From a virus (Duplodnaviria; Heunggongvirae; Uroviricota; Caudoviricetes), in the IMG/VR virus record IMGVR_UViG_2698536573_000006: a DNA stretch of 34,476 nt. One strand, 5' to 3'. The position numbers and the translations under genes were made by a program. The notes below the pieces were generated by a model. It saw only the letters and a list, made by a program, of their open reading frames with translations. It was not told where the DNA came from and did no database searches. Positions 4,419-31,806 of this stretch are shown in pieces (position 1 is the first letter of the stretch; each line of letters begins with the position of its first letter).

Positions 4419-4622
4419 ATGAACAAAAAGACCTGGTTTCGCGCATACATGTGGGCGCTGGTATGCGTCCTCGTCTCTCTCATTCTGTATGCAGGACTAC
4501 TCCCCCGAATGATTTCATCAGACAGCTCCTTCCTGGTATTGCTGGGAATTTTCATTGCCATGCTGTACCCGGCAGGCGTTGTTCGCCTTTTCAGTAAGTA
4601 CATCAAGGAAATCAAACAATGA
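4419..4622 (+). CDS. small two-helix membrane protein, possible SPFH partner
   Basis: 67 aa with two hydrophobic helices; AAAGGA Shine-Dalgarno; its stop overlaps the start of the SPFH gene. Confidence 0.55.
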   Translation: MNKKTWFRAYMWALVCVLVSLILYAGLLPRMISSDSSFLVLLGIFIAMLYPAGVVRLFSKYIKEIKQ

Positions 4623-5449
4623 AGAAATTCAAACTTTTTCAGATTCTCCCGCTTTTTGCCGCCATCCTGCTGGTTGGTTGCGATCGCGTTGAGCCAGGTA
4701 ATGTGGGCATCAAAGTCAACAAACTGGGCGACGACAAAGGCGTCGGTGAAGTGGTTGGCGTTGGCCGCTACTGGACAGGCTGGAATACAGAGGTTTACAT
4801 CTTCCCGACCTTCAAACAAATGAAGACCTACGATGAGCCGTTCAGCTTCCAGATGAGCGACGGCACAAGCATCGGCTATCACATCGGTGTGGCCTACAAA
4901 GTTGATCCATCCAAAGTTACCACAGTGTTTCAGACCTACCGCAAAGGCGTGGATGACATTACCGACACTGACCTGCGCCAGAAGATCGCCGATGCACTCA
5001 ACCGACTGGCCAGCAAAATGACCACCGATAAGTTTATCGACGGTGGTAAGTCTGAACTGCTGGATTCAGCACTTAAAGATATTCAGGAAGAGATGACCCC
5101 CATCGGCATTCAGGTCATGAGCCTCTCTTATGTCGGTAAACCGGAATATCCGCCAACCGTTATCGACAGCATTAACACCAAAGTCACGGCAAACCAGAAA
5201 ACCCTGCAACGTGAACAGGAAGTCAAGCAACGCGAAGCTGAAGCCAACATGCTGCGCGCAGAAGCTGCCGGACAGGCCGATGCCATTCGCACAAAAGCCC
5301 AGGCTGAAGCCGACGCCATTCGTTTACGCGGCGAAGCTCTGCGCCAGAATCCCGGCGTTATGGAGCTGGAAGCGATCAACAAATGGAACGGCACGCTGCC
5401 GCAATACATGACCAGTAACACCGCTGTTCCGTTCGTTCCCGTGAAGTAA
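4619..5449 (+). CDS. SPFH/band-7 (stomatin-prohibitin-HflK/C-like) lipoprotein
   Basis: 276 aa; N-terminal signal with lipobox LLVGC; the central domain and C-terminal Ala/Glu/Gln-rich coiled coil (EAEANMLRAEAAGQADAIRTKAQAEADAIRLRGEA) are typical of SPFH proteins. Confidence 0.8.
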   Translation: MKKFKLFQILPLFAAILLVGCDRVEPGNVGIKVNKLGDDKGVGEVVGVGRYWTGWNTEVYIFPTFKQMKTYDEPFSFQMSDGTSIGYHIGVAYKVDPSKVTTVFQTYRKGVDDITDTDLRQKIADALNRLASKMTTDKFIDGGKSELLDSALKDIQEEMTPIGIQVMSLSYVGKPEYPPTVIDSINTKVTANQKTLQREQEVKQREAEANMLRAEAAGQADAIRTKAQAEADAIRLRGEALRQNPGVMELEAINKWNGTLPQYMTSNTAVPFVPVK

Positions 5450-6047: not shown

Positions 6048-6119
6048 TTCCTGTTCCGGGCCTTTCCTGCACCTTGCGGCGGGAGGCCTTCGCACATCTG
6101 TAACAAGAGGATTGCCGCA

Positions 6120-6485
6120 ATGATTCTCGCCAACGACTTTCTTGAATACCTGCTCAACACAGAGCGTGATCTTGCCGCTCGCGTGCGTGATCGTTATGAC
6201 ATGTACCTGAAATCCCTGCCTGTACCGCAGCTCGCTGACGGAAAGATTGTTATTGATGGTCGCTACATGATTGACAGCCACGAGGGAAATTACAGGCTTT
6301 ACCGCATTGAAGGTGGCACCCCGTCCGTTATTGGCATTTACCAGCGCCCATCCTCTGCAATCGTCGATGTGATTGCCGACAGCATCCGCATCACACATCG
6401 CCATGCCGACACAGAAGACACCGTGCTGGAAATTCAGCGGCTGGCTACAGTCTGCCGCGACACCCTGAATGGCATGACGAAGTAA
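6120..6485 (+). CDS. hypothetical protein upstream of A
   Basis: 121-aa ORF with an AAGAGGA Shine-Dalgarno, immediately preceding the replication gene. Confidence 0.6.
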   Translation: MILANDFLEYLLNTERDLAARVRDRYDMYLKSLPVPQLADGKIVIDGRYMIDSHEGNYRLYRIEGGTPSVIGIYQRPSSAIVDVIADSIRITHRHADTEDTVLEIQRLATVCRDTLNGMTK

Positions 6486-6491
6486 ATCACT

Positions 6492-9239
6492 ATGACGGCA
6501 GAGTACATCAGGGACTGGCAACAACCGCGCCACGCAGTGGGGCGTGAAGGAACGGGGATCCCCGCTCCTGAATCCGCGCTTTCCTCCTGGCTGGATGCCT
6601 ACCGGGCAGAGAACGAGCGCCGCCAGGAAATGGCTGATGCGGCGTTCTCCGCCACGCCGCTGGGCAACCTGATTAATAAAAGCCTGGACGCACAGGAAAA
6701 ACAGGACAAAACCATCACACTGGCAGGAGACGCCAGAAAGCAGGCACGCGGCGCGGTGGATGAAGCCATGGCCTCGCTGCGCCTGCTGCCGTCCTATCTG
6801 CGCGATCCGCTTATTCGCCACCTCTCCTTCCTGCGCAAAAAACAGGAATCTGACCGCCAGAAAGGTAAAAAGAACCAGCAGGCTGAACGCTACGCGCGCG
6901 GGACCCTGCGCAAAATATTCGAACGTCTGGACCGCACCGACCACCGCTGGCTGACACCGGGTTATCGCGCCCTTGCCGGACGCGAACGCCTGGATGATTT
7001 GCTTTACCTCCCGCAGCTCAACAAGCACCAGATACAGACGCTGGCCACCATGACGGCGGCGATGTTCAGCAGCACCTTCGAAAAACTCTGCGATGGCTTT
7101 GGCGCAACCGATGGCGAGCTGACCATGGATGTAACCCTGAAGGCGTATCAGATGCTGGCCCGCATGGCGTTACACCTGCACGCCATGCCTCCACATTATG
7201 ACGCACTGACAACAGACAAAGACCGGAGGAACGAACCGGACACGGAGCTGCTGCCGGGCGCAATCCTTCGCCTGACCTGTGCGGAATGGTGGAAACGCAA
7301 ACTGTGGCTGTTACGTTGCGAGTGGAGAGAAGAACAACTCCGCGCCGCCTGTCTGGTTTCCAGAAAAACATCGCCCTATCTGAGCCAGGACGCGTTAAGC
7401 GAGTTTCGCGCACAGCGCGAGAAGACACGCGATTTCCTGAAAAGTTTCATGCTGGAAAACGAAGACGGGTTCACGATTGATCTCGAGACAGTGTATTACG
7501 CGGGAGTAAGTAACCCGGTTCACCGTAAGGCAGAAATGATGGCCACCATGAAGGGACTGGAACTTCTGGCCGAAGCCCGTGGCGACAGAGCGGTGTTTCT
7601 GACTGTCACCTGCCCGTCAAAATACCACGCCACAACAGAGAACGGTCATCCGAATCCCAAATGGAACGGGGCCACCATGCGCGACTCCAGCGATTACCTG
7701 GTTAACACGTTTTTTGCGGCTGTCCGCAAAAAACTGAACCGCGACGGTCTGCGCTGGTATGGCATCCGCACGGTGGAGCCTCACCATGACGGCACCGTGC
7801 ACTGGCATATGATGGTCTTTGCTCATCCGGAAGAAATCGACACCATTGTGTCCCACACCCGCGATATTGCCATTCAGGAAGACCGCCACGAGCTGGGCGA
7901 TGACATAACTCCGCGCTTTAAGGCGGAGTACGTCGACGGCTCAAAAGGCACACCAACCAGCTACATCGCCACCTACATCGGAAAGAACCTGGACAGCCAC
8001 GCCGTGGATGGCATCGACCCGAAAACGGGCAAGCCACGCGTTGACCACGAAACCGGAAAATCAATGGCCGAGAGCGTGGAGCGCGCCATCGGCTGGGCGC
8101 GCCTTCACCGGGTCCGCCAGTTCCAGTTCTTTGGCATCCCCTCCCGTCAGGTGTGGCGTGAACTGCGCCGCCTTGCCAGCCAGATGGCACGCAACCCGGA
8201 AGGCCCGCAACGACTGAAGGACGACGCAATGGATGCGGTACTCGCTGCCGCTGATGCCGGGTGTTTTGCCTCCTACATTGAAAAACAGGGTGGCGTACTT
8301 GTTCCACGCAAAGACTACCTGATTCGCACCGCCTACGACCTCGCCGATGAGCTGAACGATTACGGCGAACAGAGCGTACAGATTTACGGGATCTGGTCAC
8401 CACTCATCGGGGAATCCTCCCGTGTGTGCACGCATCCGGATAACTGGAAGCTGGTAAGACGTAAACCGGAAGCGGAAGACAGCGCCCGCGAAAATGGTTT
8501 TGACCTTCAGGGCGGCTCTGCCGCCCCTTGGACTCGTGGCAATAACTGTCCCCGTGTACAGGAAACGGACAACAACGGGACAGAACAGCCGGAGGAACGG
8601 CCAGCACCGTGGCCGCAGCTTCCTGAAGGCGTTGACGTGAATGAATGGATGCGCTCACTGAAACGGCACGAACGCCGGGCACTGATGCGTTCGCTGCGTG
8701 ACAAACAGGCAAAAAACAGCAGTGATGAAATGCAGAACTGGACACAGAGCCGCAAACAGCCACAGCCTTTGCCTGATAACCACGAGTTACTCGCTAAAGA
8801 ATGGCGGGAGTCTGCTGAATCTCTCGGCCTGCATATCGGTGAACAGCAGATGCAGCACCTGTTACGGGGCGGCAGTCTGTACGTTGGCGGCAGCATCATT
8901 ACACCGCAGGGATTTGAAATTGTACGCAAACCGGATACCCGCCCGGACAGCCGAATCACGCAGCTCTGGCAACGCCTGAGTCGTAATCACGGCGTAAGCA
9001 GCACGGAGATCCGCCATAACCCGGTCGCCAGCTATCTGGAACAACTAGAGGCATCAGACCCTGAAGCCGCCGCACGCCTGGCATCCACACTTCAGCAAGA
9101 CCAGAACACCATGAAAACACCAGTTACCGTACTTTCTGACATGCTGCGCGCCATCCGCGACGCAGAGCACGCACAGAGAATCAATGAAACCACTAAACAT
9201 GCTCGCAAAAAAATCAGTTTATTGCATCGAACACGATAG
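6492..9239 (+). CDS. A: replication initiation endonuclease, P2 gpA family (rolling circle)
   Basis: 915 aa; the central region (HHDGTVHWHMMVFAH ... TSYIATYIGKNLD ... WARLHRVRQFQFFGIP) matches the conserved P2 A nickase core as I recall it. Confidence 0.9.
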   Translation: MTAEYIRDWQQPRHAVGREGTGIPAPESALSSWLDAYRAENERRQEMADAAFSATPLGNLINKSLDAQEKQDKTITLAGDARKQARGAVDEAMASLRLLPSYLRDPLIRHLSFLRKKQESDRQKGKKNQQAERYARGTLRKIFERLDRTDHRWLTPGYRALAGRERLDDLLYLPQLNKHQIQTLATMTAAMFSSTFEKLCDGFGATDGELTMDVTLKAYQMLARMALHLHAMPPHYDALTTDKDRRNEPDTELLPGAILRLTCAEWWKRKLWLLRCEWREEQLRAACLVSRKTSPYLSQDALSEFRAQREKTRDFLKSFMLENEDGFTIDLETVYYAGVSNPVHRKAEMMATMKGLELLAEARGDRAVFLTVTCPSKYHATTENGHPNPKWNGATMRDSSDYLVNTFFAAVRKKLNRDGLRWYGIRTVEPHHDGTVHWHMMVFAHPEEIDTIVSHTRDIAIQEDRHELGDDITPRFKAEYVDGSKGTPTSYIATYIGKNLDSHAVDGIDPKTGKPRVDHETGKSMAESVERAIGWARLHRVRQFQFFGIPSRQVWRELRRLASQMARNPEGPQRLKDDAMDAVLAAADAGCFASYIEKQGGVLVPRKDYLIRTAYDLADELNDYGEQSVQIYGIWSPLIGESSRVCTHPDNWKLVRRKPEAEDSARENGFDLQGGSAAPWTRGNNCPRVQETDNNGTEQPEERPAPWPQLPEGVDVNEWMRSLKRHERRALMRSLRDKQAKNSSDEMQNWTQSRKQPQPLPDNHELLAKEWRESAESLGLHIGEQQMQHLLRGGSLYVGGSIITPQGFEIVRKPDTRPDSRITQLWQRLSRNHGVSSTEIRHNPVASYLEQLEASDPEAAARLASTLQQDQNTMKTPVTVLSDMLRAIRDAEHAQRINETTKHARKKISLLHRTR

Positions 9240-9284
9240 AAATATAGAGCTAAGGCCGCCCTAGGAATAAGGAGGCCTTGAAAA

Positions 9285-10058
9285 TCAACCTATCTTCTTA
9301 TGAAGTAAAATTAATTTCTGTATTAATTTGGAATGAAACATAGATATATCAGAAATTCTTATTTCATTAGGCGAGTCTATATGATTGGAAACTTCTTCCT
9401 CCAAGGAGTCACAAATACTTTCTAGATTTTCAATATCTGCATTTAATTCTGGAAAACTATTAAACAAATATAATGAATCCCGTAACTCTCCTAGTTTTGG
9501 TAAAAGAGTATTACTGAATACACTAAGAAACTCCTCTTCTGATAATGCCATGGAGTTTTTAAAACTTTGCACAACATCGAATGCCAACCCATTAATTTTA
9601 GGCATAATTACTTCTCTTACCCAATATCCTTCATTAATAGCTTCTTTACGTTCTTTTCTATGTTGAACATAAGGAATAACAAAGGATGAAACTAAGGCAA
9701 ATAAAGAGATGCCAATAGAAATCCACTCTGGACCATTTTCCGGAACCTTTACAATATTATATATATCATGGGAATTTGGAACATCTTTGAAATAATTAGC
9801 AAATAAATCTTTTTTGTTATCCCTTGCCAGAGATAACTTATGAAAGGTGTCGTTTGCCTTTTCACAAAACATCAAGCCATCATTCGGGTTTCCGGATAAC
9901 AAAAACGGTGATGATATACCACTAAGTCCTGAATCGGAAATATAAAAAGGCGTGTTTGGATAAAGTGACTCATTACATTCAATGTTTTCTTTATTGGAAA
10001 AATCTGTCACAGAGCAAGCTGCGGGGAATATAAAAAAAATGACAGACAGCGCTGTCAT
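9285..10058 (-). CDS. cargo island gene 3: signal-peptide plus single-TM membrane protein
   Basis: ORF 9285..10094. N-terminal hydrophobic signal (MTALSVIFFIFPAACS), a roughly 110-aa extracytoplasmic region, one TM helix (WISIGISLFALVSSFVIPYV), then an acidic helical C-terminal domain. AT-rich. Start ambiguous (10058 or 10094). Confidence 0.65.
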   Translation of the reverse strand: MTALSVIFFIFPAACSVTDFSNKENIECNESLYPNTPFYISDSGLSGISSPFLLSGNPNDGLMFCEKANDTFHKLSLARDNKKDLFANYFKDVPNSHDIYNIVKVPENGPEWISIGISLFALVSSFVIPYVQHRKERKEAINEGYWVREVIMPKINGLAFDVVQSFKNSMALSEEEFLSVFSNTLLPKLGELRDSLYLFNSFPELNADIENLESICDSLEEEVSNHIDSPNEIRISDISMFHSKLIQKLILLHKKIG

Positions 10059-10077
10059 TTTGATTTGAAAAATATTT

Positions 10078-10422
10078 TTAAAAGAAGGGAACATTTTTAT
10101 GTAAGCCTCTCCTTACAGCTCTATCTAATTCAGAAAGCATACCTTCTTTATATTCACGACCATCAAGTACAGTGCGACTATAAAATTCGCTAGGCGAAGA
10201 AAATTTCGGCAAAACCGTTTCAAGCATACCTAGAAAGTATGAGCTTGATACAACAATTCCCTTGGGGATCAATAGATATAATCTATCATTACTGGTTGTG
10301 CAAAATTTCCCTATATTAAAGTAATCATAGGCCTGGCGCCCATTAGAACGTCCAGCAAAAAGTTTCTTGTTACTATCTTTTACTAACTTATTGAAATCTA
10401 TGGTGATGTCAGCCATTTTCAT
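10078..10422 (-). CDS. cargo island gene 2: small STAS-like (DUF4325-like) protein
   Basis: 114 aa; the segment LLIPKGIVVSSSYFLGMLETVL resembles the conserved core of STAS-like small proteins that pair with GHKL kinases. This is from memory, not a search. Begins 10 nt after the upstream gene's stop. Confidence 0.7.
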   Translation of the reverse strand: MKMADITIDFNKLVKDSNKKLFAGRSNGRQAYDYFNIGKFCTTSNDRLYLLIPKGIVVSSSYFLGMLETVLPKFSSPSEFYSRTVLDGREYKEGMLSELDRAVRRGLHKNVPFF

Positions 10423-10432
10423 GTACCTGTCC

Positions 10433-11812
10433 TCAAGTTCGCTGGGTGGCGTTTTCTGGTAGAGGAAAACGAATATTGATCATAACTCCAGGAAATCGAG
10501 CATCCTTCATACGCTTAAGATAGTTGCGATCCGGTTCAGATTCAAGCCCTACATCATTAAAAGGGTAAGTAAAAATGTCACTTTCCTCGTCATTAACCAA
10601 CCTTTGCTTTAATTTATATGATCCATCAAAGTTAATATGAGTACTACCAGATATTAAAGTCATTTTTATCCCACCTTTAATATCTCTTCCCATTTTTTTA
10701 AGATTATCATGCATATCTTGAAATAACTTCAATAATTCAATTGTTCCGGTGCCAGAACTGTCAGTTTCTTTCTCGTTTTTACAACTCACCCGCCCTTGCA
10801 AGGCCGCTACTGTTGTTAATCCTTCCTTAAACATACCCTTTTTCTTAATATGCTTATTTATGTATGGATTAACTTGTTGACTTAATGAAAAATGATCCTC
10901 AGGTAAATTATCAAAAGTTTCGCTGATAGTTTTCCCAAAATTGAAAACAGCCAACTCACATATGGGGTTTCGTACGTTATTATTAACAAAACCTCTCAAA
11001 TACCAGCGTGGGCGTTGCTCTAACCCACAATGCCGCTCCGCATTATCAAGGAGTTCCCCCATGCAGGAAGTTAAATGCTTTTCTGCCTCATGTACAAGTT
11101 TTAAATTATGATCATTTAAGCATTCGTTTATGTATGCGGTAAATTTTTCAGCAGTGACATTTTTTCTGTCATGGGCAAAGGCAGAAGCATTCTCCTTTCC
11201 GATACTATCAGCAGAGAAGATTCGTTTCTTCGGATTCGCTTTTTTCGATGCTTCAGTAGAGTCCAGAACTTTACCTGGTGCAGCATTACTAATCTCTTTT
11301 ACAAGCCCGACATCCCTGATAATTTCAAGATACTGTTCATCTTTAGGGTAGATACCATTAATCTGAATCATCGTATCTTTGAAATTTATATTACTTTGCC
11401 TTGCTGCTGTAAGAGCAACACCTAATAGACACTCAAGACCAAGACAGTGTTTTTTGTTTTTCTTGTAATCAAAAATATATGATTTCCATTTACCTCTTGC
11501 AATTAATTTTGTGGCTGCACTAATAAATAGCAGAGATTTCTCTGGATTGTCATATAAGTCAAAATATTTAGGTATTAATATCTTCTCTGCGTCACGACGA
11601 AGAATTGATGAGTCATACTCTTTTATAATCGATATATTTTCAATGAACGTAGCGACTTGGTTTTGGACAGGAGTTGTTTCATCGGAAAAACGAAGACTAC
11701 CATTTTTCTCTTGCGCAGGCTTTTTTTTCTTAGCTCTCTCAACGCTACGAAGAAATCGCAACCATCCACGTAAAAAGGTTCTTTTAGAATCTTCTTTATT
11801 GATTTTTTTCAT
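10433..11812 (-). CDS. cargo island gene 1: protein with C-terminal GHKL (histidine-kinase-like) ATPase domain
   Basis: ORF 10433..11908; start set at ATG 11812 (MKKINK), which follows AGGAA. The C-terminal region has an N-box-like ELLDNAERH and a G-box-like SGTGTIELL; the N-terminal 250 aa or so is unrecognised. AT-rich. Confidence 0.8.
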   Translation of the reverse strand: MKKINKEDSKRTFLRGWLRFLRSVERAKKKKPAQEKNGSLRFSDETTPVQNQVATFIENISIIKEYDSSILRRDAEKILIPKYFDLYDNPEKSLLFISAATKLIARGKWKSYIFDYKKNKKHCLGLECLLGVALTAARQSNINFKDTMIQINGIYPKDEQYLEIIRDVGLVKEISNAAPGKVLDSTEASKKANPKKRIFSADSIGKENASAFAHDRKNVTAEKFTAYINECLNDHNLKLVHEAEKHLTSCMGELLDNAERHCGLEQRPRWYLRGFVNNNVRNPICELAVFNFGKTISETFDNLPEDHFSLSQQVNPYINKHIKKKGMFKEGLTTVAALQGRVSCKNEKETDSSGTGTIELLKLFQDMHDNLKKMGRDIKGGIKMTLISGSTHINFDGSYKLKQRLVNDEESDIFTYPFNDVGLESEPDRNYLKRMKDARFPGVMINIRFPLPENATQRT

Positions 11813-11930
11813 TTCCAAATGTTCCTGCAAAGTTAACGTAGCCCACAAGGCGCTAAGTATACTTTCTGCTATATTTTTTTCACTATACAAATGCACAATA
11901 GTGCACAAATTTGCACAATTTTTTTGAACG
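11813..11930 (-). promoter_or_regulatory. putative promoter/operator of the cargo operon with three 10-bp-phased TGCACAA repeats
   Basis: TGCACAA at 11892-11898, 11902-11908 and 11912-11918 (top strand), exactly 10 bp apart; on the minus strand the TTGTGCA repeats resemble a -35 element and are followed by TATAGT (top strand 11882-11887). Confidence 0.4.
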
Positions 11931-11988: not shown

Positions 11989-12013
11989 AAAAAAACGCGC
12001 TTTTTCTGCGCGC
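11989..12013 (-). terminator. putative intrinsic terminator (minus strand)
   Basis: On the minus strand: stem cgcgc, loop agaaaaa, stem gcgcg, then a 7-T run; sits between the Q end and the cargo island. Confidence 0.45.
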
Positions 12014-12342: not shown

Positions 12343-13389
12343 TCAGGATGTGGGCGGGGTGTCCAGCAGTGCGTAAGGGTTAAAGCGGATCACCTCTTCG
12401 CCAAGCCAGTCATTGATGTGCTTCATGGCCTCCATAACGGGCATCAGCTCGTTAATTGCATAAACCCGCGCGGCCTTCTCCACATCACCAAACGCACTTT
12501 TTTCGCCCGGCATCGCCCCCATCAGTTGCGGCGGAACGCGGTGCGCAGCCAGCACATCATCACGGGATGCCGCCTTAACATTCATGAACTCATCCTTTGC
12601 GGTGATCTGCTGGAACGGCAAAATTTGCACCCCCTCTTTGCCCCCGTTGGGCGCATGAATGAGCACGTTTTTAAATGCACCACCACCACGTGCACCCTGT
12701 AGCGTTTCCTTCAGGGAGTCCATGCTTTCGCGGTTTACCTGCGCTGCACCGATGTAGATGATGCACCCGGCGTGGGATCCATTGTCGTAGTACAGTTTTC
12801 TGAACATGTCCGCCGAATGAGACAGGCTGGCCGAGAGTAATGCGCCGAGATATTCCGGCATGCCGTAGATTTCCTGGTTAATGTCAGGATTCATCAGGTG
12901 GCACACTTTGCCAGGGCGAAACTGAAACGCGTCCTTGCCATCCTGCACATACCACCATGATTCAAGATCGCTTCCGCGTCGCATGTATTTCGCCAGGGCG
13001 TGCCGTAATTTAAGCGGTTCGCCGAGCATATTGCTCCGAAGCTCAAGGAATGCGTTACCGAACACAAACCAGTCCAGCGCCAGCGCCGAGAAATCCTGCC
13101 GGGAAAGCAGCGGGTGCGGGATGTAGCAACTGAGCAATACATTACGCTTAAAGTAAAGCGCAGACTGATGCCAGGACGTTTGCCGGGCAGCTCTTGCCAG
13201 ACCGTACCAGTCCACCGGGGTTTCATACCACCGCCCGTTATCAGCACAGTACATATTGTCCAGCAAATCATGCCCGGTCAGGCGATAAGGACCATCAAAT
13301 GTGAATGCACTGAGCGACGATTCTTTCCTGAGCGCATCAGCGAGATCAATGCGTGAACTCATGCGCACTTTTTTATTTTTTCTGCTCAT
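12343..13389 (-). CDS. Q: portal protein, P2 gpQ family
   Basis: 348 aa; position and orientation (divergent from O, downstream of P) and overall similarity to my recollection of P2 Q. Confidence 0.9.
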   Translation of the reverse strand: MSRKNKKVRMSSRIDLADALRKESSLSAFTFDGPYRLTGHDLLDNMYCADNGRWYETPVDWYGLARAARQTSWHQSALYFKRNVLLSCYIPHPLLSRQDFSALALDWFVFGNAFLELRSNMLGEPLKLRHALAKYMRRGSDLESWWYVQDGKDAFQFRPGKVCHLMNPDINQEIYGMPEYLGALLSASLSHSADMFRKLYYDNGSHAGCIIYIGAAQVNRESMDSLKETLQGARGGGAFKNVLIHAPNGGKEGVQILPFQQITAKDEFMNVKAASRDDVLAAHRVPPQLMGAMPGEKSAFGDVEKAARVYAINELMPVMEAMKHINDWLGEEVIRFNPYALLDTPPTS

Positions 13390-21202: not shown

Positions 21203-21330
21203 GCGCAGAACTCATGCGACTGCTGAGCAACATCATCCGCACCGGGATCATCTCTGAAGTTGATGAGAAGTCCTGGTGCGTGCGCGTTCGCAGCGGCGAA
21301 CTGGAAACAGGCTGGTTAACACCATGGTGA
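21199..21330 (+). pseudogene. V: remnant of baseplate spike gene V (first ~43 codons only)
   Basis: Translation [43 protein letters not shown] matches the P2 V N-terminus (LRNMIRTGIIVETD...RCRVQTGG...DWLQW) then stops; the rest of V is absent. Confidence 0.6.
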
Positions 21331-23015
21331 TGGCCACAGTGGATTACGTGGATAACAAACTGAAAGAGCATGAACAGTCACGACGTCACCCGGATGCCTC
21401 GCTGACCGCAAAAGGCTTTGTTCAACTCAGTAGCGCCACTAACAGCGTGTCTGAAACACAAGCTGCAACGCCGAAAGCAGTAAAGGCCGCGTATGACCTT
21501 GCTAACGGGAAATATACTGCGCAGGATGCCAGCACAACGCGAAAAGGCCTTGTCCAGCTCAGTAGCGCCACCAACAGCGATTCTGAAACGCTGGCGGCAA
21601 CACCAAAGGCGGTAAAGGCAGCATATGACCTTGCTAACGGGAAATATACCGCACAGGACGCTACCACAGCGCGAAAAGGTCTTATCCAGCTCAGCAGTGC
21701 GACTAACAGCACTTCCGAGTCACTGGCGGCAACGCCAAAAGCCGTTAAGGCCGCGTATGAGCTGGCTAACGGGAAATACACCGCACAGGATGCAACGACA
21801 GCACAGAAAGGGATAGTTCAGCTTAGCAACGCGACCAACAGCACATCTGAAACGCTGGCGGCAACGCCAAAGGCGGTAAAGGCAGCATATGACCTTGCTA
21901 ACGGGAAATATACCGCACAGGACGCTACCACAGCGCGAAAAGGTCTTGTCCAGCTCAGTAGTGCAACCAACAGCACGTCTGAAACGCTTGCCGCGACCCC
22001 GAAAGCGGTTAAAGCTGCTAATGACAATGCAAACGGGCGTGTGCCCTCTGGACGTAAGGTTAATGGCAAACCACTGACCAATGATGTCAATGTTACATCA
22101 CAGGATATTTTTAACGGTCAGAGTATTAATATTGGTGCAAACCAGAATCTGGATAATTACAAAACGCCGGGGCTGTACCATCAACCCCTGAATGCCTATA
22201 CAAGTGCAGCGCTGAAATACCCAGAGAATCTTGCCGGTACACTGGTTGTGCTTAAAAATGCCGGGATAACACAGATTTACTATGTGTATAACACATCCAG
22301 AAGCTATACCCGCAGCCAGTACTCAACGGGTGACTGGACAGCATGGACGCCGCAGGATTCATTTCCTGTAGGTGCGGCGATTCCGTGGCCTTCTGATTCA
22401 GTGCCTACAGGCTATGCCGTTATGCAGGGGCAGACTTTTGATAAAACAACCTATCCCCTGCTTGCAGCAGCTTATCCCTCTGGTGTACTCCCCGATATGC
22501 GTGGCTGGACAATCAAGGGCAAACCCGCCAGTGGTCGGGACGTATTGTCTCTGGAACAGGATGGCATTAAATCGCACACCCACAGCGCCAGCGCATCCAA
22601 TACGGATTTGGGTACGAAAACCACATCTTCGTTTGATTACGGTACTAAATCAACGAATAACACAGGTGCACATACCCACAATGTATCTGGTACTGCAAAT
22701 AGTGCTGGCGCACATACTCATACCGTGCCATTAAGGAGACCAAACAGTGGCGGTATGAATTTCGACTGGCTGGATGGTGCATCAAGTGGCACGGTGGTAG
22801 GGAATGGAACTGTGCCTTCTTCTGGCGCACATACCCACTCAGTATCAGGCACCGCTACAAGTGCTGGGGCACATGCACACACTGTTGGTATTGGCGCTCA
22901 TACGCACTCTGTTGCGATTGGTTCACATGGACATACCATCACCGTTAACGCTGCTGGTAACGCGGAAAACACCGTTAAAAACATCGCATTTAATTATATT
23001 GTGAGGCTTGCATAA
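21324..23015 (+). CDS. H: tail fibre protein (P2 gpH-like), lacking the baseplate-proximal N-terminal domain
   Basis: From ATG 21324: [32 protein letters not shown] corresponds to an internal segment of P2 H ([33 protein letters not shown]). Followed by tandem repeats and a C-terminal GAHTH-repeat tip. Confidence 0.8.
21411..22040 (+). repeat. tandem 132-bp coding repeats (about 4.7 copies) inside the tail fibre gene
   Basis: Repeated 44-aa unit [44 protein letters not shown]; the nucleotide copies are near-identical. Confidence 0.8.
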
Positions 23016-23632
23016 TGGCATTCAGAATGAGTGAACAATCACGCACTGTAAAAATTTATAACCTGCTGGCCGGAACTAATGAGTTTATTGGTGAAGGTGA
23101 CGCATATATTCCACCTCATACAGGGCTGCCAGCTAATTCTACAGATATCGCCCCACCGGAAATTCCTGCTGGCTTTGTGGCAGTTTTTAACAGTGAAAAT
23201 GAATCGTGGAATATTGTTGAAGACCATCGTGGTAAAACGGTCTATGACGTGGCATCGGGGGACGCGTTGTTTATTTCTGAACCCGGACCGCTACCAGAGA
23301 ATGTCACCTGGTTGTCGCCAGCAGGGGAATATCAGAAGTGGGACGGCGTATCCTGGGTGAAGGATGAGGAAGCAGAAAAACTGTTTCGGATACGGGAAGC
23401 GGAAGAGAAAAAGGCAAGGTTGATCCAGGAGGCAACAGATAACATCGCAATCCTGCAGGATGCAGTTAATCTTGAAATAGCAACAAACGAGGAAAATTCA
23501 CAACTGGATTCCTGGAGAAAATACAGAGTATTAGTGAGTAGAATTGACACCAGTACAGCTCCGGATATCGTATGGCCAGAGCTGATGAATCAGGGTTATG
23601 TGCGGGAGGACGAGCAGATAACTTCAGACTGA
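23015..23632 (+). CDS. G: tail fibre assembly protein (gpG-like)
   Basis: 205 aa; its ATG overlaps the H stop; N-terminal region typical of Tfa chaperones. Confidence 0.75.
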
Positions 23633-24159
23633 AATTTAGTGATGAATGTTGAATCATCAGGAATATCATGCAATACCAATGCATGAGCACCTATTGTGAC
23701 ATTGTTTCCTATACGCACTTTGCCACCAAGAATGGTGGCATTACAACCAATGGTCACATTATGTCCTATAACAATATCCATATCATTAAAATCACCACGT
23801 AGCCCAATAGTTACCCCCGGTTTTATTGAACAATTTTCACCGATTGTTACTTTGTGACCGATAACAACACTGTTGAGATAAGAAATATCAAAACCTTTCC
23901 CTATATTTACAGTTAAAGGGACTGTTACATTATATTTATCAAGAATGAAACGTTCTATTTTCCCCGCAATCTTCCGACAGTATCCGCCTTTATCAAAAAG
24001 GTATTTGGCTATGCGCCACCAAAATAAATAACGAAGTCTTCTATGTTTTATTGCGCGAACAATTGCCTTTCGCCAGGAGAAAGGACGCTCGCTACCGATT
24101 ACTTCATAGTGAATACAGTCTTTAAGTTCATTAATATTCATATCTCTATTATTCAGCAT
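23596..24159 (-). CDS. hexapeptide-repeat (left-handed beta-helix) acetyltransferase, cargo at the Z/fun position
   Basis: 187 aa with repeated [LIV]GxxxxIG hexapeptide units ([45 protein letters not shown]); AT-rich; convergent with G and overlapping its 3' end. Confidence 0.7.
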
Positions 24160-30062: not shown

Positions 30063-31172
30063 ATGACCGACACCACCATGCAATTGCTCAGTCAGGGCAC
30101 AGACCCCGTAAAAATGCCGGATTTTGATATTCTCGCGGAGGGTAAAACGCTGTCAGGCGTGGCAGAGCGCCTGATGAGCCTGTCACTGACCGACAACCGG
30201 GGATTTGAGGCGGACCAGCTCACCATCACGCTGGATGATGCGGATGGTCAGTTGCAGCTACCGCCACGGGGCGCGCGCCTGACGGTTCTCATTGGCTGGA
30301 AGGGAGAACCGCTGACAGAAAAAGGCACTTACATTGTTGATGAAATCGCTCACGAAGGACCGCCGGACAGGCTGACTGTTTCAGCCAGAAGCGCAGATTT
30401 TCGGGATGAATTTAACGTTAAACGTGAGGTGTCCTGGCATGATGTGACCGTTGAGCGTGTGGTATCCGCCATCGCTCATCGGTATGGTCTGAAACCGCAA
30501 ATCAGCGAAATGCTGATGGATATCGAAATCGACCACGCCGACCAGACCGAAGAAAGCGACATGTCCTTCCTTACGCGCATGGCGGAAATGCTGGGTGCAA
30601 TCACCACGGTAAAAAGCGGCAATCTGTTATTCATCATGCCAGGTGGTGGCGTGAACGCACAGGGCCAGCCGTTGCCCTCGTTCGCCATTACACGCAGCAG
30701 CGGCGATCGCCATCAGTTCCGCATTGCTGACCGCGAGGCGTATACGGGGGTACGCGCCTACTGGCTTGATCTTAATTACGGGAAAAAGAAAAAAGTCAGC
30801 GTGAAACGCCGTAAACCGCCAAAACCCAAAAAGGAGAAAAGCAGCAGCCGTGAAGGTGATTATATGGAAGGCGCGGAAGGCAATGTGTTTGTGTTACGCA
30901 AGACTTATCAGAACGAGCAGGCAGCAAGACGCGCAGCGGCGGCAAAGTGGCAGCAACTACAACGCGGAGCCGCATCATTCTCCATCACGCTGGCGCGTGG
31001 ACGTGCAGAACTCTACCCCGAAATGCATGGCACGTTAACAGGATTTAAAAGCGAGATTGATAATCAGGACTGGATTATTGCAAAAGCCGGGCACACCATT
31101 GATAACAGCGGCTTTACCACGCAGCTTGAGCTTGAGGCAAAAATCCCGGAATGGATAGCGGAAACAGAGTGA
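30063..31172 (+). CDS. D: tail protein D (late control gene D family)
   Basis: ORF 29931..31172; start at ATG 30063 after GGGAGGGA. DNRGFEADQLT, SARSADFR, NSGFTTQLELE and a KR-rich insert match P2 D. Confidence 0.9.
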   Translation: MTDTTMQLLSQGTDPVKMPDFDILAEGKTLSGVAERLMSLSLTDNRGFEADQLTITLDDADGQLQLPPRGARLTVLIGWKGEPLTEKGTYIVDEIAHEGPPDRLTVSARSADFRDEFNVKREVSWHDVTVERVVSAIAHRYGLKPQISEMLMDIEIDHADQTEESDMSFLTRMAEMLGAITTVKSGNLLFIMPGGGVNAQGQPLPSFAITRSSGDRHQFRIADREAYTGVRAYWLDLNYGKKKKVSVKRRKPPKPKKEKSSSREGDYMEGAEGNVFVLRKTYQNEQAARRAAAAKWQQLQRGAASFSITLARGRAELYPEMHGTLTGFKSEIDNQDWIIAKAGHTIDNSGFTTQLELEAKIPEWIAETE

Positions 31173-31214: not shown

Positions 31215-31475
31215 ATGTTCCGTTGTCCGCTTTGTGGCGCATCTGCCCGTATCCGCACCAGTCGTCCGGAAAATGATTCAAACACCGTGCGGCAAAAGTA
31301 TTACCAGTGTAACAATCTGGAATGCGGCGTATGCTTCTCAACACTGGAAGCTTTCCATAAATTCACATCGAAACACGCCTCCGGCGTTCACTCATCAGAA
31401 GGTATCCCGTGGCATGAGCTGCCAGCTTCACACAGGGGAAACAATCAGATGAGTTTGCCTTTACCTCAGAATTAA
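31215..31475 (+). CDS. ogr: late gene activator Ogr (zinc finger)
   Basis: MFRCPLCGASARIRTSR...YYQCNNLECGVCF matches the P2 Ogr Cys4 zinc-finger N-terminus (MFHCPLCQHAAHARTSR...YHQCQNVNC); AGGGAGG Shine-Dalgarno. Confidence 0.8.
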   Translation: MFRCPLCGASARIRTSRPENDSNTVRQKYYQCNNLECGVCFSTLEAFHKFTSKHASGVHSSEGIPWHELPASHRGNNQMSLPLPQN

Positions 31476-31665: not shown

Positions 31666-31806
31666 ATGTCGCAAAAATCGCTTACGGCCATCACGTTCTG
31701 CGTGACGGCAATCCTCATCATCTGGATGCTGCACGGTTCGCTGTGTGAAATACGGATGAGTTTCTGGGGAGCGGAGTTTGCGGCGTTCTTACAGTGTAAG
31801 CAGTAA
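31666..31806 (+). CDS. Hok/Gef-family type I toxin candidate
   Basis: 46-aa ORF MSQKSLTAITFCVTAILIIWMLHGSLCEIRMSFWGAEFAAFLQCKQ: one TM helix followed by SLCEIR and AAF motifs typical of Hok/HokA. AAAGGAG Shine-Dalgarno. An overlapping upstream frame (31536..31748) could be mok-like. Confidence 0.6.
   Translation: MSQKSLTAITFCVTAILIIWMLHGSLCEIRMSFWGAEFAAFLQCKQ

Follow-up and report, generated by a model that had tools for sequence, protein, structure and literature searches.

The closest described relatives of the locus analysed here are switches in which a kinase acts on a STAS-domain protein. In VapKSC (Chambers et al., EMBO J 2026, PMC13373217), VapK, a STAS+GHKL kinase, frees the PIN toxin VapC by phosphorylating S48 of the STAS antitoxin VapS, and the vapKSC operon protects about 100-fold against phage Bas42. 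The operon has no phosphatase, yet the system is driven by phosphorylation (PMC13373217). CapK, a kinase with helix-turn-helix (HTH), STAS and GHKL parts, phosphorylates a conserved serine of CapS, a repressor built from a STAS domain and a winged HTH (wHTH). Single-stranded DNA (ssDNA) is the activating cue for both VapK and CapK, the kinase being the sensor in these relatives, and a general DNA-damage signal is stressed by the same authors as the trigger of VapKSC-like modules (PMC13373217). Here we analyse a stretch of 34,476 nucleotides (nt) of viral DNA (IMG/VR record IMGVR_UViG_2698536573_000006; the whole stretch is called the window below), which contains a P2-like prophage running from integrase (1-1005) through ogr (31215-31475). 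Between its gpA-like replication gene and its portal gene lies a cassette of three genes, all of them labelled hypothetical protein in RefSeq. Gene 1 encodes a putative serine kinase and sensor of the module, gene 2 a divergent DUF4325/STAS-like protein that is a putative kinase substrate and antitoxin-like switch, and gene 3 a single-pass membrane protein that is the putative effector. The cassette is a variant, with a putative membrane effector, of the characterised kinase-STAS kind and not a new class, because it was listed in 2022 as system #19 of the P2 hotspot and VapKSC was characterised in 2026.

The 2022 record is Table S5B of Rousset et al. (PMC9122126), where system #19 carries the labels HATPase_c and DUF4325 and is counted in 155 of 18,150 loci. 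The window proteins match the system #19 sequences over the length printed in that table (gene 1 is partial there). The entry is thus the same cassette, given as a catalogue item with HHpred and Phobius labels and without a name, a mechanism or a link to STAS+GHKL kinases. According to the same study, many previously untested cassettes of this hotspot do defend (PMC9122126). Peptides of the triad are absent from its tables of validated and additionally tested systems, and this ruled out the candidate identity of the cassette with the three-hypothetical-protein (3HP) system that protects against P1. In PADLOC-DB v2.0.0, genes 1 and 2 have no match and gene 3 has only a chance-level one, to PDC-S02 (E 0.018). 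This release presumably covers Rst_3HP and the PD-T4/T7/lambda systems. Literature searches on DUF4325, on partner-switching anti-phage systems, on STAS + HATPase defence and on the WP accessions returned no paper on the cassette, and a 2026 P2/P4 preprint does not mention it. An initial annotation, made from the letters of the window, had taken the triad to be undescribed, a view overturned by the 2022 listing and by the characterisation of the homologous kinase-STAS-effector system VapKSC. It had not recognised the triad as a named defence system, and searches of PADLOC, Pfam and NCBIfam indeed gave no significant match, whereas its suggestion of a new class does not stand, the cassette being catalogued and VapKSC being homologous.

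Protein architecture and relation to described switches

Like vapKSC, the cassette is a three-gene operon in the order kinase, small STAS protein, effector, and both are found on mobile elements and in defence-gene neighbourhoods, the share reported for vapKSC near known defence systems being 36%. For sequence comparison, VapK and VapS were taken from the deposited AlphaFold 3 model file of PMC13373217. Gene 1 and VapK both combine a STAS with a GHKL domain and have phrog_3364 of the PHROGs library in common, which is matched by VapK at 3.6e-38, by gene 1 at E 2.4e-7 over aa 75-453 and by relatives of gene 1 at 4.6e-17 to 5.2e-10. Because both match this profile, gene 1 is, by transitive profile similarity, a remote homologue of VapK. 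The direct alignment of gene 1 with VapK is colinear and has the N-box and the G1 box in register, though it is non-significant. The two small proteins are both DUF4325-type and about 115 aa long, and each has a C-terminal helix as well as a single conserved Ser/Thr at helix alpha-2; VapS matches PF14213 at 2.7e-17. A further profile, phrog_5816 (441 positions), has a weak GHKL-type match to VapK at positions 191-284 (E 0.032) and DUF4325-type matches at its C-terminus (about 348-439; gene 2 relative E 1.3e-5, VapS E 0.067), and may represent a natural kinase-STAS fusion. Searches with VapK itself gave no relatives in IMG/VR and two distant matches on plasmids, not enough to build a profile.

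The cassette differs from VapKSC chiefly in its third protein, which is a single-pass membrane protein with no PIN match, whereas VapC is a PIN nuclease. Gene 1 is also longer than VapK (459 aa versus 302 aa): it has an extra basic N-terminus, and both its ATP lid and its C-terminal sheet are extended. The G1 box of the gene 1 family reads [NS]xGx[TS], in contrast to DFGVG in VapK, which fits DxGxG, and the ssDNA-contacting Phe of VapK is not evidently conserved in gene 1. Phage protection has been shown for VapKSC, whereas that by the cassette is putative.

The AlphaFold2 (AF2) model of gene 1 comprises a STAS-like domain and, C-terminal to it, a GHKL (Bergerat-fold) domain of the SpoIIAB/RsbW kind (Table 1). 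Structural matches of the former include the STAS domains RsbV (8.6), TM1442 (8.4), SLC26 STAS domains, MlaB and SpoIIAA, and the best match of the latter is of SpoIIAB type. The first 70 residues hold 16 K/R versus 9 D/E. The initial annotation had read a Bergerat signature (ELLDNAERH, SGTGT) in the C-terminal part, and both motifs are present with their key residues invariant; it had left the N-terminal half unrecognised, and to this half the structure prediction now assigns the STAS-like domain. Among 222 non-redundant relatives, E253 and N257 of the N-box are invariant and H261 is kept in 221, and the box aligns with EIYANSFEH of VapK. G354 and G356 of the G2 box, and G293 of the G1 box, are likewise invariant in 222/222. 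The Bergerat fold, the N-box Glu and Asn for Mg-ATP binding and the G2 glycines that are expected of the GHKL superfamily are all found in gene 1. The DxGxG form of the G1 box is not: the adenine-contacting Asp is replaced (its equivalence to D190 of VapK is alignment-based), with position 291 being N in 197, S in 23 and D in 1 of the relatives. Loss of this Asp could mean altered nucleotide specificity or pseudokinase behaviour, and that the whole family shows it while the GHKL site is otherwise intact is a biochemical peculiarity open to testing. No significant match to gene 1 was found in Pfam, NCBIfam, PADLOC or the PDB sequences, the last of which were searched with the protein and with its family profile.

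Gene 2 is modelled by AF2 as a single alpha/beta domain plus one helix (pLDDT 89.6). Its earlier description as a STAS-like protein is borne out in the DUF4325 sense. DUF4325 is its HHpred label in Table S5B of Rousset et al. 2022 (PMC9122126), distant relatives reach PF14213 at 4.4e-4 and 5.6e-3 (20.3 and 16.8 bits versus a cut-off of 23), and phrog_37359 is matched at about 1e-10 by distant relatives and at 0.006 by the window protein. The sequence motif of the protein also speaks for the assignment. A Pfam search with a 33-member alignment (the window protein and 32 close relatives) gave no DUF4325 match at E<=1, a PDB sequence search with the gene 2 profile gave no match, and hhalign detected no similarity between gene 2 and the STAS-like domain of gene 1. 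Four residues only, three glycines (two plus one further) and one serine, are invariant among 35 non-redundant relatives. This serine (S61 in the 114-aa numbering) is placed by the model at the N-terminus of helix alpha-2 (helix 58-65), the same helix start that carries the phospho-acceptor of SpoIIAA, CapS (S54) and VapS (S48), and it falls within one residue of VapS Ser48 in a hidden Markov model (HMM) alignment that is itself non-significant. Its position and conservation make S61 a candidate phospho-acceptor.

Gene 3 has a signal peptide and one transmembrane (TM) helix according to Phobius (Rousset et al. 2022, Table S5B, PMC9122126), and hydropathy peaks at aa 8-26 and 125-143 agree, as had been proposed for this signal-peptide/TM protein with a cytoplasmic helical tail. 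Cys27, at the end of the lipobox-like stretch, is kept in at least 90% of homologues, which is why gene 3 may be a lipoprotein. The predicted periplasmic segment is about 30% identical in comparisons where gene 1 is 57-79% and the C-terminal part of gene 3 is 44-70% identical, and the third proteins of Erwinia and of an alphaproteobacterial clade start at the TM helix. Sequence and profile searches of Pfam, NCBIfam and PDB gave no match to gene 3, and its cytoplasmic domain is without detectable relatives of known function in them.

The CapK/CapS pair shares with the cassette a STAS+GHKL kinase directly followed by a STAS-domain substrate with a conserved phospho-serine, for which gene 2 has the candidate described above. 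It differs in that CapK has an N-terminal HTH where gene 1 has a single basic helix, and in that the C-terminal wHTH of CapS represses an immune operon, whereas gene 2, at 112-114 aa, is too short for a wHTH and is followed only by the membrane-protein gene. SpoIIAB/SpoIIAA and RsbW/RsbV provide the best structural matches of the GHKL and STAS-like domains of gene 1, the ExxxNAxxH form of the N-box and a STAS partner with its serine at the start of helix alpha-2, and the comparison with RsbW/RsbV-like partner switching made in the initial annotation was apt. Unlike these modules, the cassette includes neither a sigma factor nor a PP2C phosphatase, a STAS-like domain is fused to gene 1 itself, a membrane protein forms the output, and the whole is phage-borne cargo and not a housekeeping regulon. 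With the membrane-effector abortive-infection (Abi) systems (RexAB, and the TM effectors of CBASS, Thoeris and retrons), the cassette would share the end-point, loss of membrane integrity caused by a released small protein. The proposed upstream kinase/STAS switch sets it apart from their nucleotide messengers or direct sensors, and PADLOC and Pfam searches gave no sequence relation to them.

Conservation and genomic setting of the cassette

To examine conservation of the cassette, 50 other loci were compared (24 of GTDB species genomes, 26 of IMG/VR). In 49 of the 50, gene 1 is directly followed by a gene 2 homologue, the exception ending at a contig edge, and this co-occurrence upholds the earlier view that the genes form a single unit. 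The gene 3 family, after HMM iteration, is found directly 3' of gene 2 in 33 loci. In 14 further loci the position of gene 3 is occupied by a protein of 167-233 aa whose N-terminal segment is hydrophobic and whose C-terminal domain is long, and a TM helix is predicted in about half of these by our own hydropathy cut-off. The 14 come from an alphaproteobacterial clade, a Bacteroidota metagenome-assembled genome (MAG), Candidatus Enterousia and one IMG/VR contig. In sum, a putative single-pass membrane protein comes after gene 2 in 47 of the 49 loci, and two duplicate loci are without an obvious third gene.

Loci with the cassette span Gamma-, Beta- and Alphaproteobacteria and Bacteroidota. A word-indexed search returned 59 clusters for gene 1, 33 for gene 2 and 21 for gene 3, often from common contigs, and an exhaustive search with the gene 1 profile returned 1177 clusters (50% identity) at E<=1e-3 and 565 at E<=1e-30; the best 150 of the 1177 are mostly full length, at about 400-460 aa. 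Among complete E. coli genomes, 23 of 5426 have the cassette, and E. coli NCCP 15734 (NZ_CP097001.1) has it in two copies. A tblastn search with gene 1 gave no match in 50,697 deposited phage genomes, and among phages the gene is therefore known from prophages only. One 3147-bp contig of a MAG assigned to Firmicutes ('Planococcaceae bacterium UBA3378', DEQA01000158.1) gives, for all of genes 1-3, HMM scores equal to those of the E. coli cassette, and its gene 1 is 100% identical to that of the E. coli cassette by tblastn; this contig is most likely mis-binned or contaminating.

The gpA-portal slot carries the cassette in at least 16 IMG/VR P2-like contigs, whose portal proteins are 46-100% identical to that of the window, in keeping with the earlier placement of the unit in a known P2 defence and cargo hotspot. 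The cassette of Yersinia aleksiciae sits likewise in this slot. Elsewhere it was found in a lambdoid prophage of Proteus, flanked by the tail-fibre genes and the integrase, in one Tn7-like element beside TnsD/TniQ genes, beside an integrase and a DUF927 primase, and on plasmids of Pantoea, Vibrio, Salinivibrio, Providencia and Spirosoma. Genes for AbiE, SIR2_2 and KAP NTPase adjoin cassette loci. A distant triad is present in two Sphingomonas P2-like prophage loci (at about 6100-8600 in one of them) between the divergent terminase and capsid-scaffold genes, which suggests a second cargo site in alphaproteobacterial P2-like phages.

Proposed mechanism and competing explanations

VapKSC logic with a membrane effector is the most economical account of the cassette because of the homology of the kinase-STAS pair and the position of the third gene. 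We give an even chance to the cassette being a mobile anti-phage toxin-antitoxin (TA) or Abi module of this design, in which a membrane protein replaces the PIN toxin. In the uninfected cell, gene 2 would bind the cytoplasmic domain of gene 3 and hold it inactive. An infection cue would switch on gene 1, which would phosphorylate gene 2 on the invariant serine where helix alpha-2 begins. Phosphorylated gene 2 would then dissociate from gene 3, and the freed gene 3 would oligomerise and damage the inner membrane, halting the cell and the phage with it. In this scheme we infer an anti-phage function, kinase activity of gene 1, the binding partners and toxicity of gene 3. The specific step in which phosphoserine on gene 2 releases gene 3 as a membrane toxin is put forward tentatively, at somewhat below an even chance. 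Should the cassette defend, the kinase-STAS switch of CapKS and VapKSC would be a modular controller able to drive a membrane effector; a function would be found for at least 1177 clusters (50% identity) of Proteobacteria and Bacteroidota that are now hypothetical proteins, and an explanation would be at hand for a cargo that ranks among the 30 most frequent unexplained ones in the P2 hotspot of E. coli.

Several observations weigh against this scheme. Direct similarity to VapK and VapS is non-significant (1.7 and 7.9 bits; hhalign E 0.18 and 0.033), the ssDNA-binding aromatic residue F54 of VapK aligns with K121 of gene 1 (in a low-confidence alignment), and gene 2 is a weak fold match to solved STAS proteins. 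Kinase activity and ATP specificity of gene 1 are uncertain because the G1-box Asp is Asn or Ser in 220/222 relatives. A VapKSC-like mechanism leaves the signal peptide of gene 3 and its variable periplasmic segment without a role, one TM helix would make a modest toxin, and the 14 alternative third proteins resemble gene 3 only marginally (hhalign P 7e-4, probability 26%). The cassette is also missing from the tested-system tables of Rousset et al. and from PADLOC-DB.

The periplasmic segment is central to the view that gene 3 is an envelope sensor and not an effector, acting as an immune receptor or in superinfection exclusion. The segment, possibly lipid-anchored, would detect phage adsorption or DNA injection, and the cytoplasmic domain would signal to the kinase-STAS pair, which would in turn hit host or phage targets or block DNA entry. 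The signal peptide, Cys27 and the low identity of the segment (about 30% versus 57-79% for gene 1) fit a diversifying recognition surface, and gene 1 or gene 2 could provide a docking partner for the conserved cytoplasmic domain. However, because the third proteins of many homologous cassettes, such as those of Erwinia and the alphaproteobacterial clade, start at the TM helix, the segment is dispensable for the core function. The 2.65-kb cargo moreover offers no other effector gene, and the sensor in the characterised relatives is the kinase, all of which makes a sensor role of gene 3 quite improbable in our assessment. An outside-in form of partner-switching immunity, with gene 3 as a transmembrane receptor whose hypervariable lipid-anchored segment senses phage and gates a non-canonical GHKL + DUF4325 switch, is a long shot. 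If true, it would represent a large unnamed class of immune modules and not a simple VapKSC variant, and the nucleotide specificity of gene 1 would possibly be different.

Defence might also not be the main role of the cassette, any anti-phage effect then being incidental. It would in that case be a kinase-controlled TA module that stabilises a prophage or plasmid, or a stress or DNA-damage switch tied to prophage induction or lysis timing. Its architecture is the same as that of a TA system, it resides on plasmids and integrative elements, it is retained in a prophage that is probably defective (see below), and VapKSC-like modules answer a general DNA-damage signal (Chambers et al., PMC13373217). 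We nevertheless hold an addiction or regulatory role to be unlikely, as the cassette recurs where validated defence systems swap (the P2 gpA-portal slot, prophage ends and Tn7 cargo), is adjoined by AbiE, SIR2 and KAP genes, and has the foreign base composition and patchy spread (23/5426 complete E. coli genomes) typical of defence cargo. The replaced G1 Asp raises a different question, namely whether partners are switched without phosphorylation. Gene 1 would then be a nucleotide-gated binding protein or ATPase (a pseudokinase) that keeps hold of either partner (gene 2, or gene 3 through its cytoplasmic domain) in the way that SpoIIAB holds sigma-F, with the nucleotide state, or a nucleotide other than ATP, setting which partner is held. 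The protein matched best in structure, SpoIIAB, acts as a kinase as well as a binding protein. Replacement of the Asp in 220/222 relatives while the Mg- and phosphate-binding residues are invariant would be accounted for in this way, as would the lack of a phosphatase gene in the cargo; VapKSC, however, also has no phosphatase and yet uses phosphorylation. The sole invariant serine of gene 2 stands at the phospho-acceptor position of SpoIIAA, CapS and VapS, and an Asn or Ser side chain can, by our reasoning, still take a hydrogen bond from adenine N6. We consider sequestration by gene 1 rather improbable, and the membrane-effector version of VapKSC logic is the reading retained here.

Gene calls, control signals and the remainder of the prophage

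Annotation was taken from the RefSeq/PGAP record NZ_CP024275.1 2529028-2563503 (E. coli O6:H16 M9682-C1), whose sequence is identical to the window. The cargo is 2.65 kb in size and contains genes 1-3 alone. The three co-directional minus-strand open reading frames (ORFs) were found where the initial annotation had placed them between gpA and the portal gene, and the 10-nt spacing of genes 1 and 2 and the AT-rich composition, which had been judged by eye, were confirmed, GC content being 35.1% in the cargo (9245-11890) versus 52.9% in the rest of the prophage. The extent then given for gene 3 (9285-10058) needs revision. A start at 10094, as in PGAP, is more likely than one at 10058 because an AAGGAG Shine-Dalgarno sequence precedes 10094, with no such sequence ahead of 10058, and because the resulting 12-residue N-terminal extension is kept in most homologues. 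The 17-nt overlap of genes 2 and 3 that results from this start points to translational coupling.

Table 1. Coordinates of the cassette, its flanks and predicted features in the window (CDS, coding sequence)
Feature	Position	Strand	Details and basis
gpA-like replication endonuclease	6492-9239	+	left flank of cargo
Weak hairpin between convergent gene 3 and gpA, possible terminator	9245-9264	-	terminator-like scan: 6 pairs, 3 GC
Gene 3	9285-10094	-	269 aa, WP_000484450; ORF and RefSeq CDS
Gene 3 aa 143-269, conserved cytoplasmic helical domain	9288-9668	-	invariant INEGxW..EVI.PK, L..LR...YL and CD..E motifs
Gene 3 aa 122-142, transmembrane helix (PEWISIGISLFALVSSFVIPY)	9669-9731	-	hydropathy and conserved alignment block
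Gene 3 aa 28-118, predicted periplasmic segment, fast-evolving	9741-10013	-	missing in many distant homologues
Gene 3 aa 1-27, signal peptide ending in lipobox-like ...AAC	10014-10094	-	alignment and translation
Gene 2	10078-10422 (114 aa); PGAP 10078-10416 (112 aa)	-	WP_000763711; ORF
Codon of sole invariant serine of gene 2 (S61 in 114-aa, S59 in 112-aa numbering)	10240-10242	-	35/35 relatives; translation-checked
Gene 1	10433-11812	-	459 aa, WP_000723541; ORF
Gene 1 aa ~236-452, GHKL (Bergerat-fold) domain, SpoIIAB/RsbW type	10457-11107	-	boundaries inferred from model secondary structure
G2 box GTGT, aa 354-357 (G354, G356, T357)	10742-10753	-	N-terminus of model helix 356-373
G1 box NFGKT, aa 291-295, non-canonical	10928-10942	-	aligns with VapK D190-F-G-V-G
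N-box ELLDNAERH, aa 253-261 (E253, N257, H261)	11030-11056	-	fits ExxxNAxxH of anti-sigma kinases; translation-checked
Gene 1 aa ~72-205, STAS-like alpha/beta domain	11198-11599	-	boundaries inferred from model secondary structure
Gene 1 aa 1-30, Lys/Arg-rich N-terminal helix, not HTH	11723-11812	-	AF2 helix 6-29
Cargo-side upstream region with one promoter-like site (-35 GTGAAA 11883-11878, -10 TATACT 11861-11856)	11813-11890	-	consensus scan
Three TTGTGCA direct repeats, backbone/cargo junction	11891-11918	-	spaced 10-11 nt apart
Portal gene	12343-13389	-	right flank of cargo

The dedicated promoter and terminator that had been proposed for the operon did not hold up: promoter-like sites in the consensus scan are at chance level (8 found versus 9.4 expected, with no enrichment over shuffles), and the hairpin after gene 3 is weak. 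A separate cassette promoter within 11813-11890 is plausible because a strong terminator at 11995-12013 closes the portal operon upstream of the cargo. The TTGTGCA repeats at the junction are conserved in other P2-like gpA-portal slots whatever the cargo, and sequences diverge right beyond them. By this comparison the repeats are a feature of the P2 backbone near cos that marks the recombination junction, and as part of the backbone they were rejected as a cassette operator. PGAP annotates a 42-aa hypothetical protein (WP_001507679, 12146-12274, plus strand) in the spacer near cos that separates the cargo from the portal gene.

Elsewhere in the prophage, PGAP reports a baseplate protein V without its C-terminus (21214-21318) and a tail fibre without its N-terminus (21429-23015), which implies deletion of the genes V (C-terminal part)-W-J-I-H (N-terminal part). 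The gpD-like gene is short (30372-31172) and has a pseudogene fragment ahead of it, the affected region being 30319-31172. The prophage is probably defective. A serine acetyltransferase gene (23596-24141, minus strand), which separates the tail-fibre assembly gene from the tail operon and is encoded on the opposite strand, probably marks a second cargo (moron) slot. Upstream of gpA, the small hypothetical genes of the early operon are accompanied by one for an SPFH-domain protein (4619-5449, plus strand), a possible accessory gene. Immediately beyond the ogr end of the prophage comes a Hok/Gef-family toxin gene (31666-31806, plus strand), followed by genes for a zinc-ribbon protein and a TagO-like protein.

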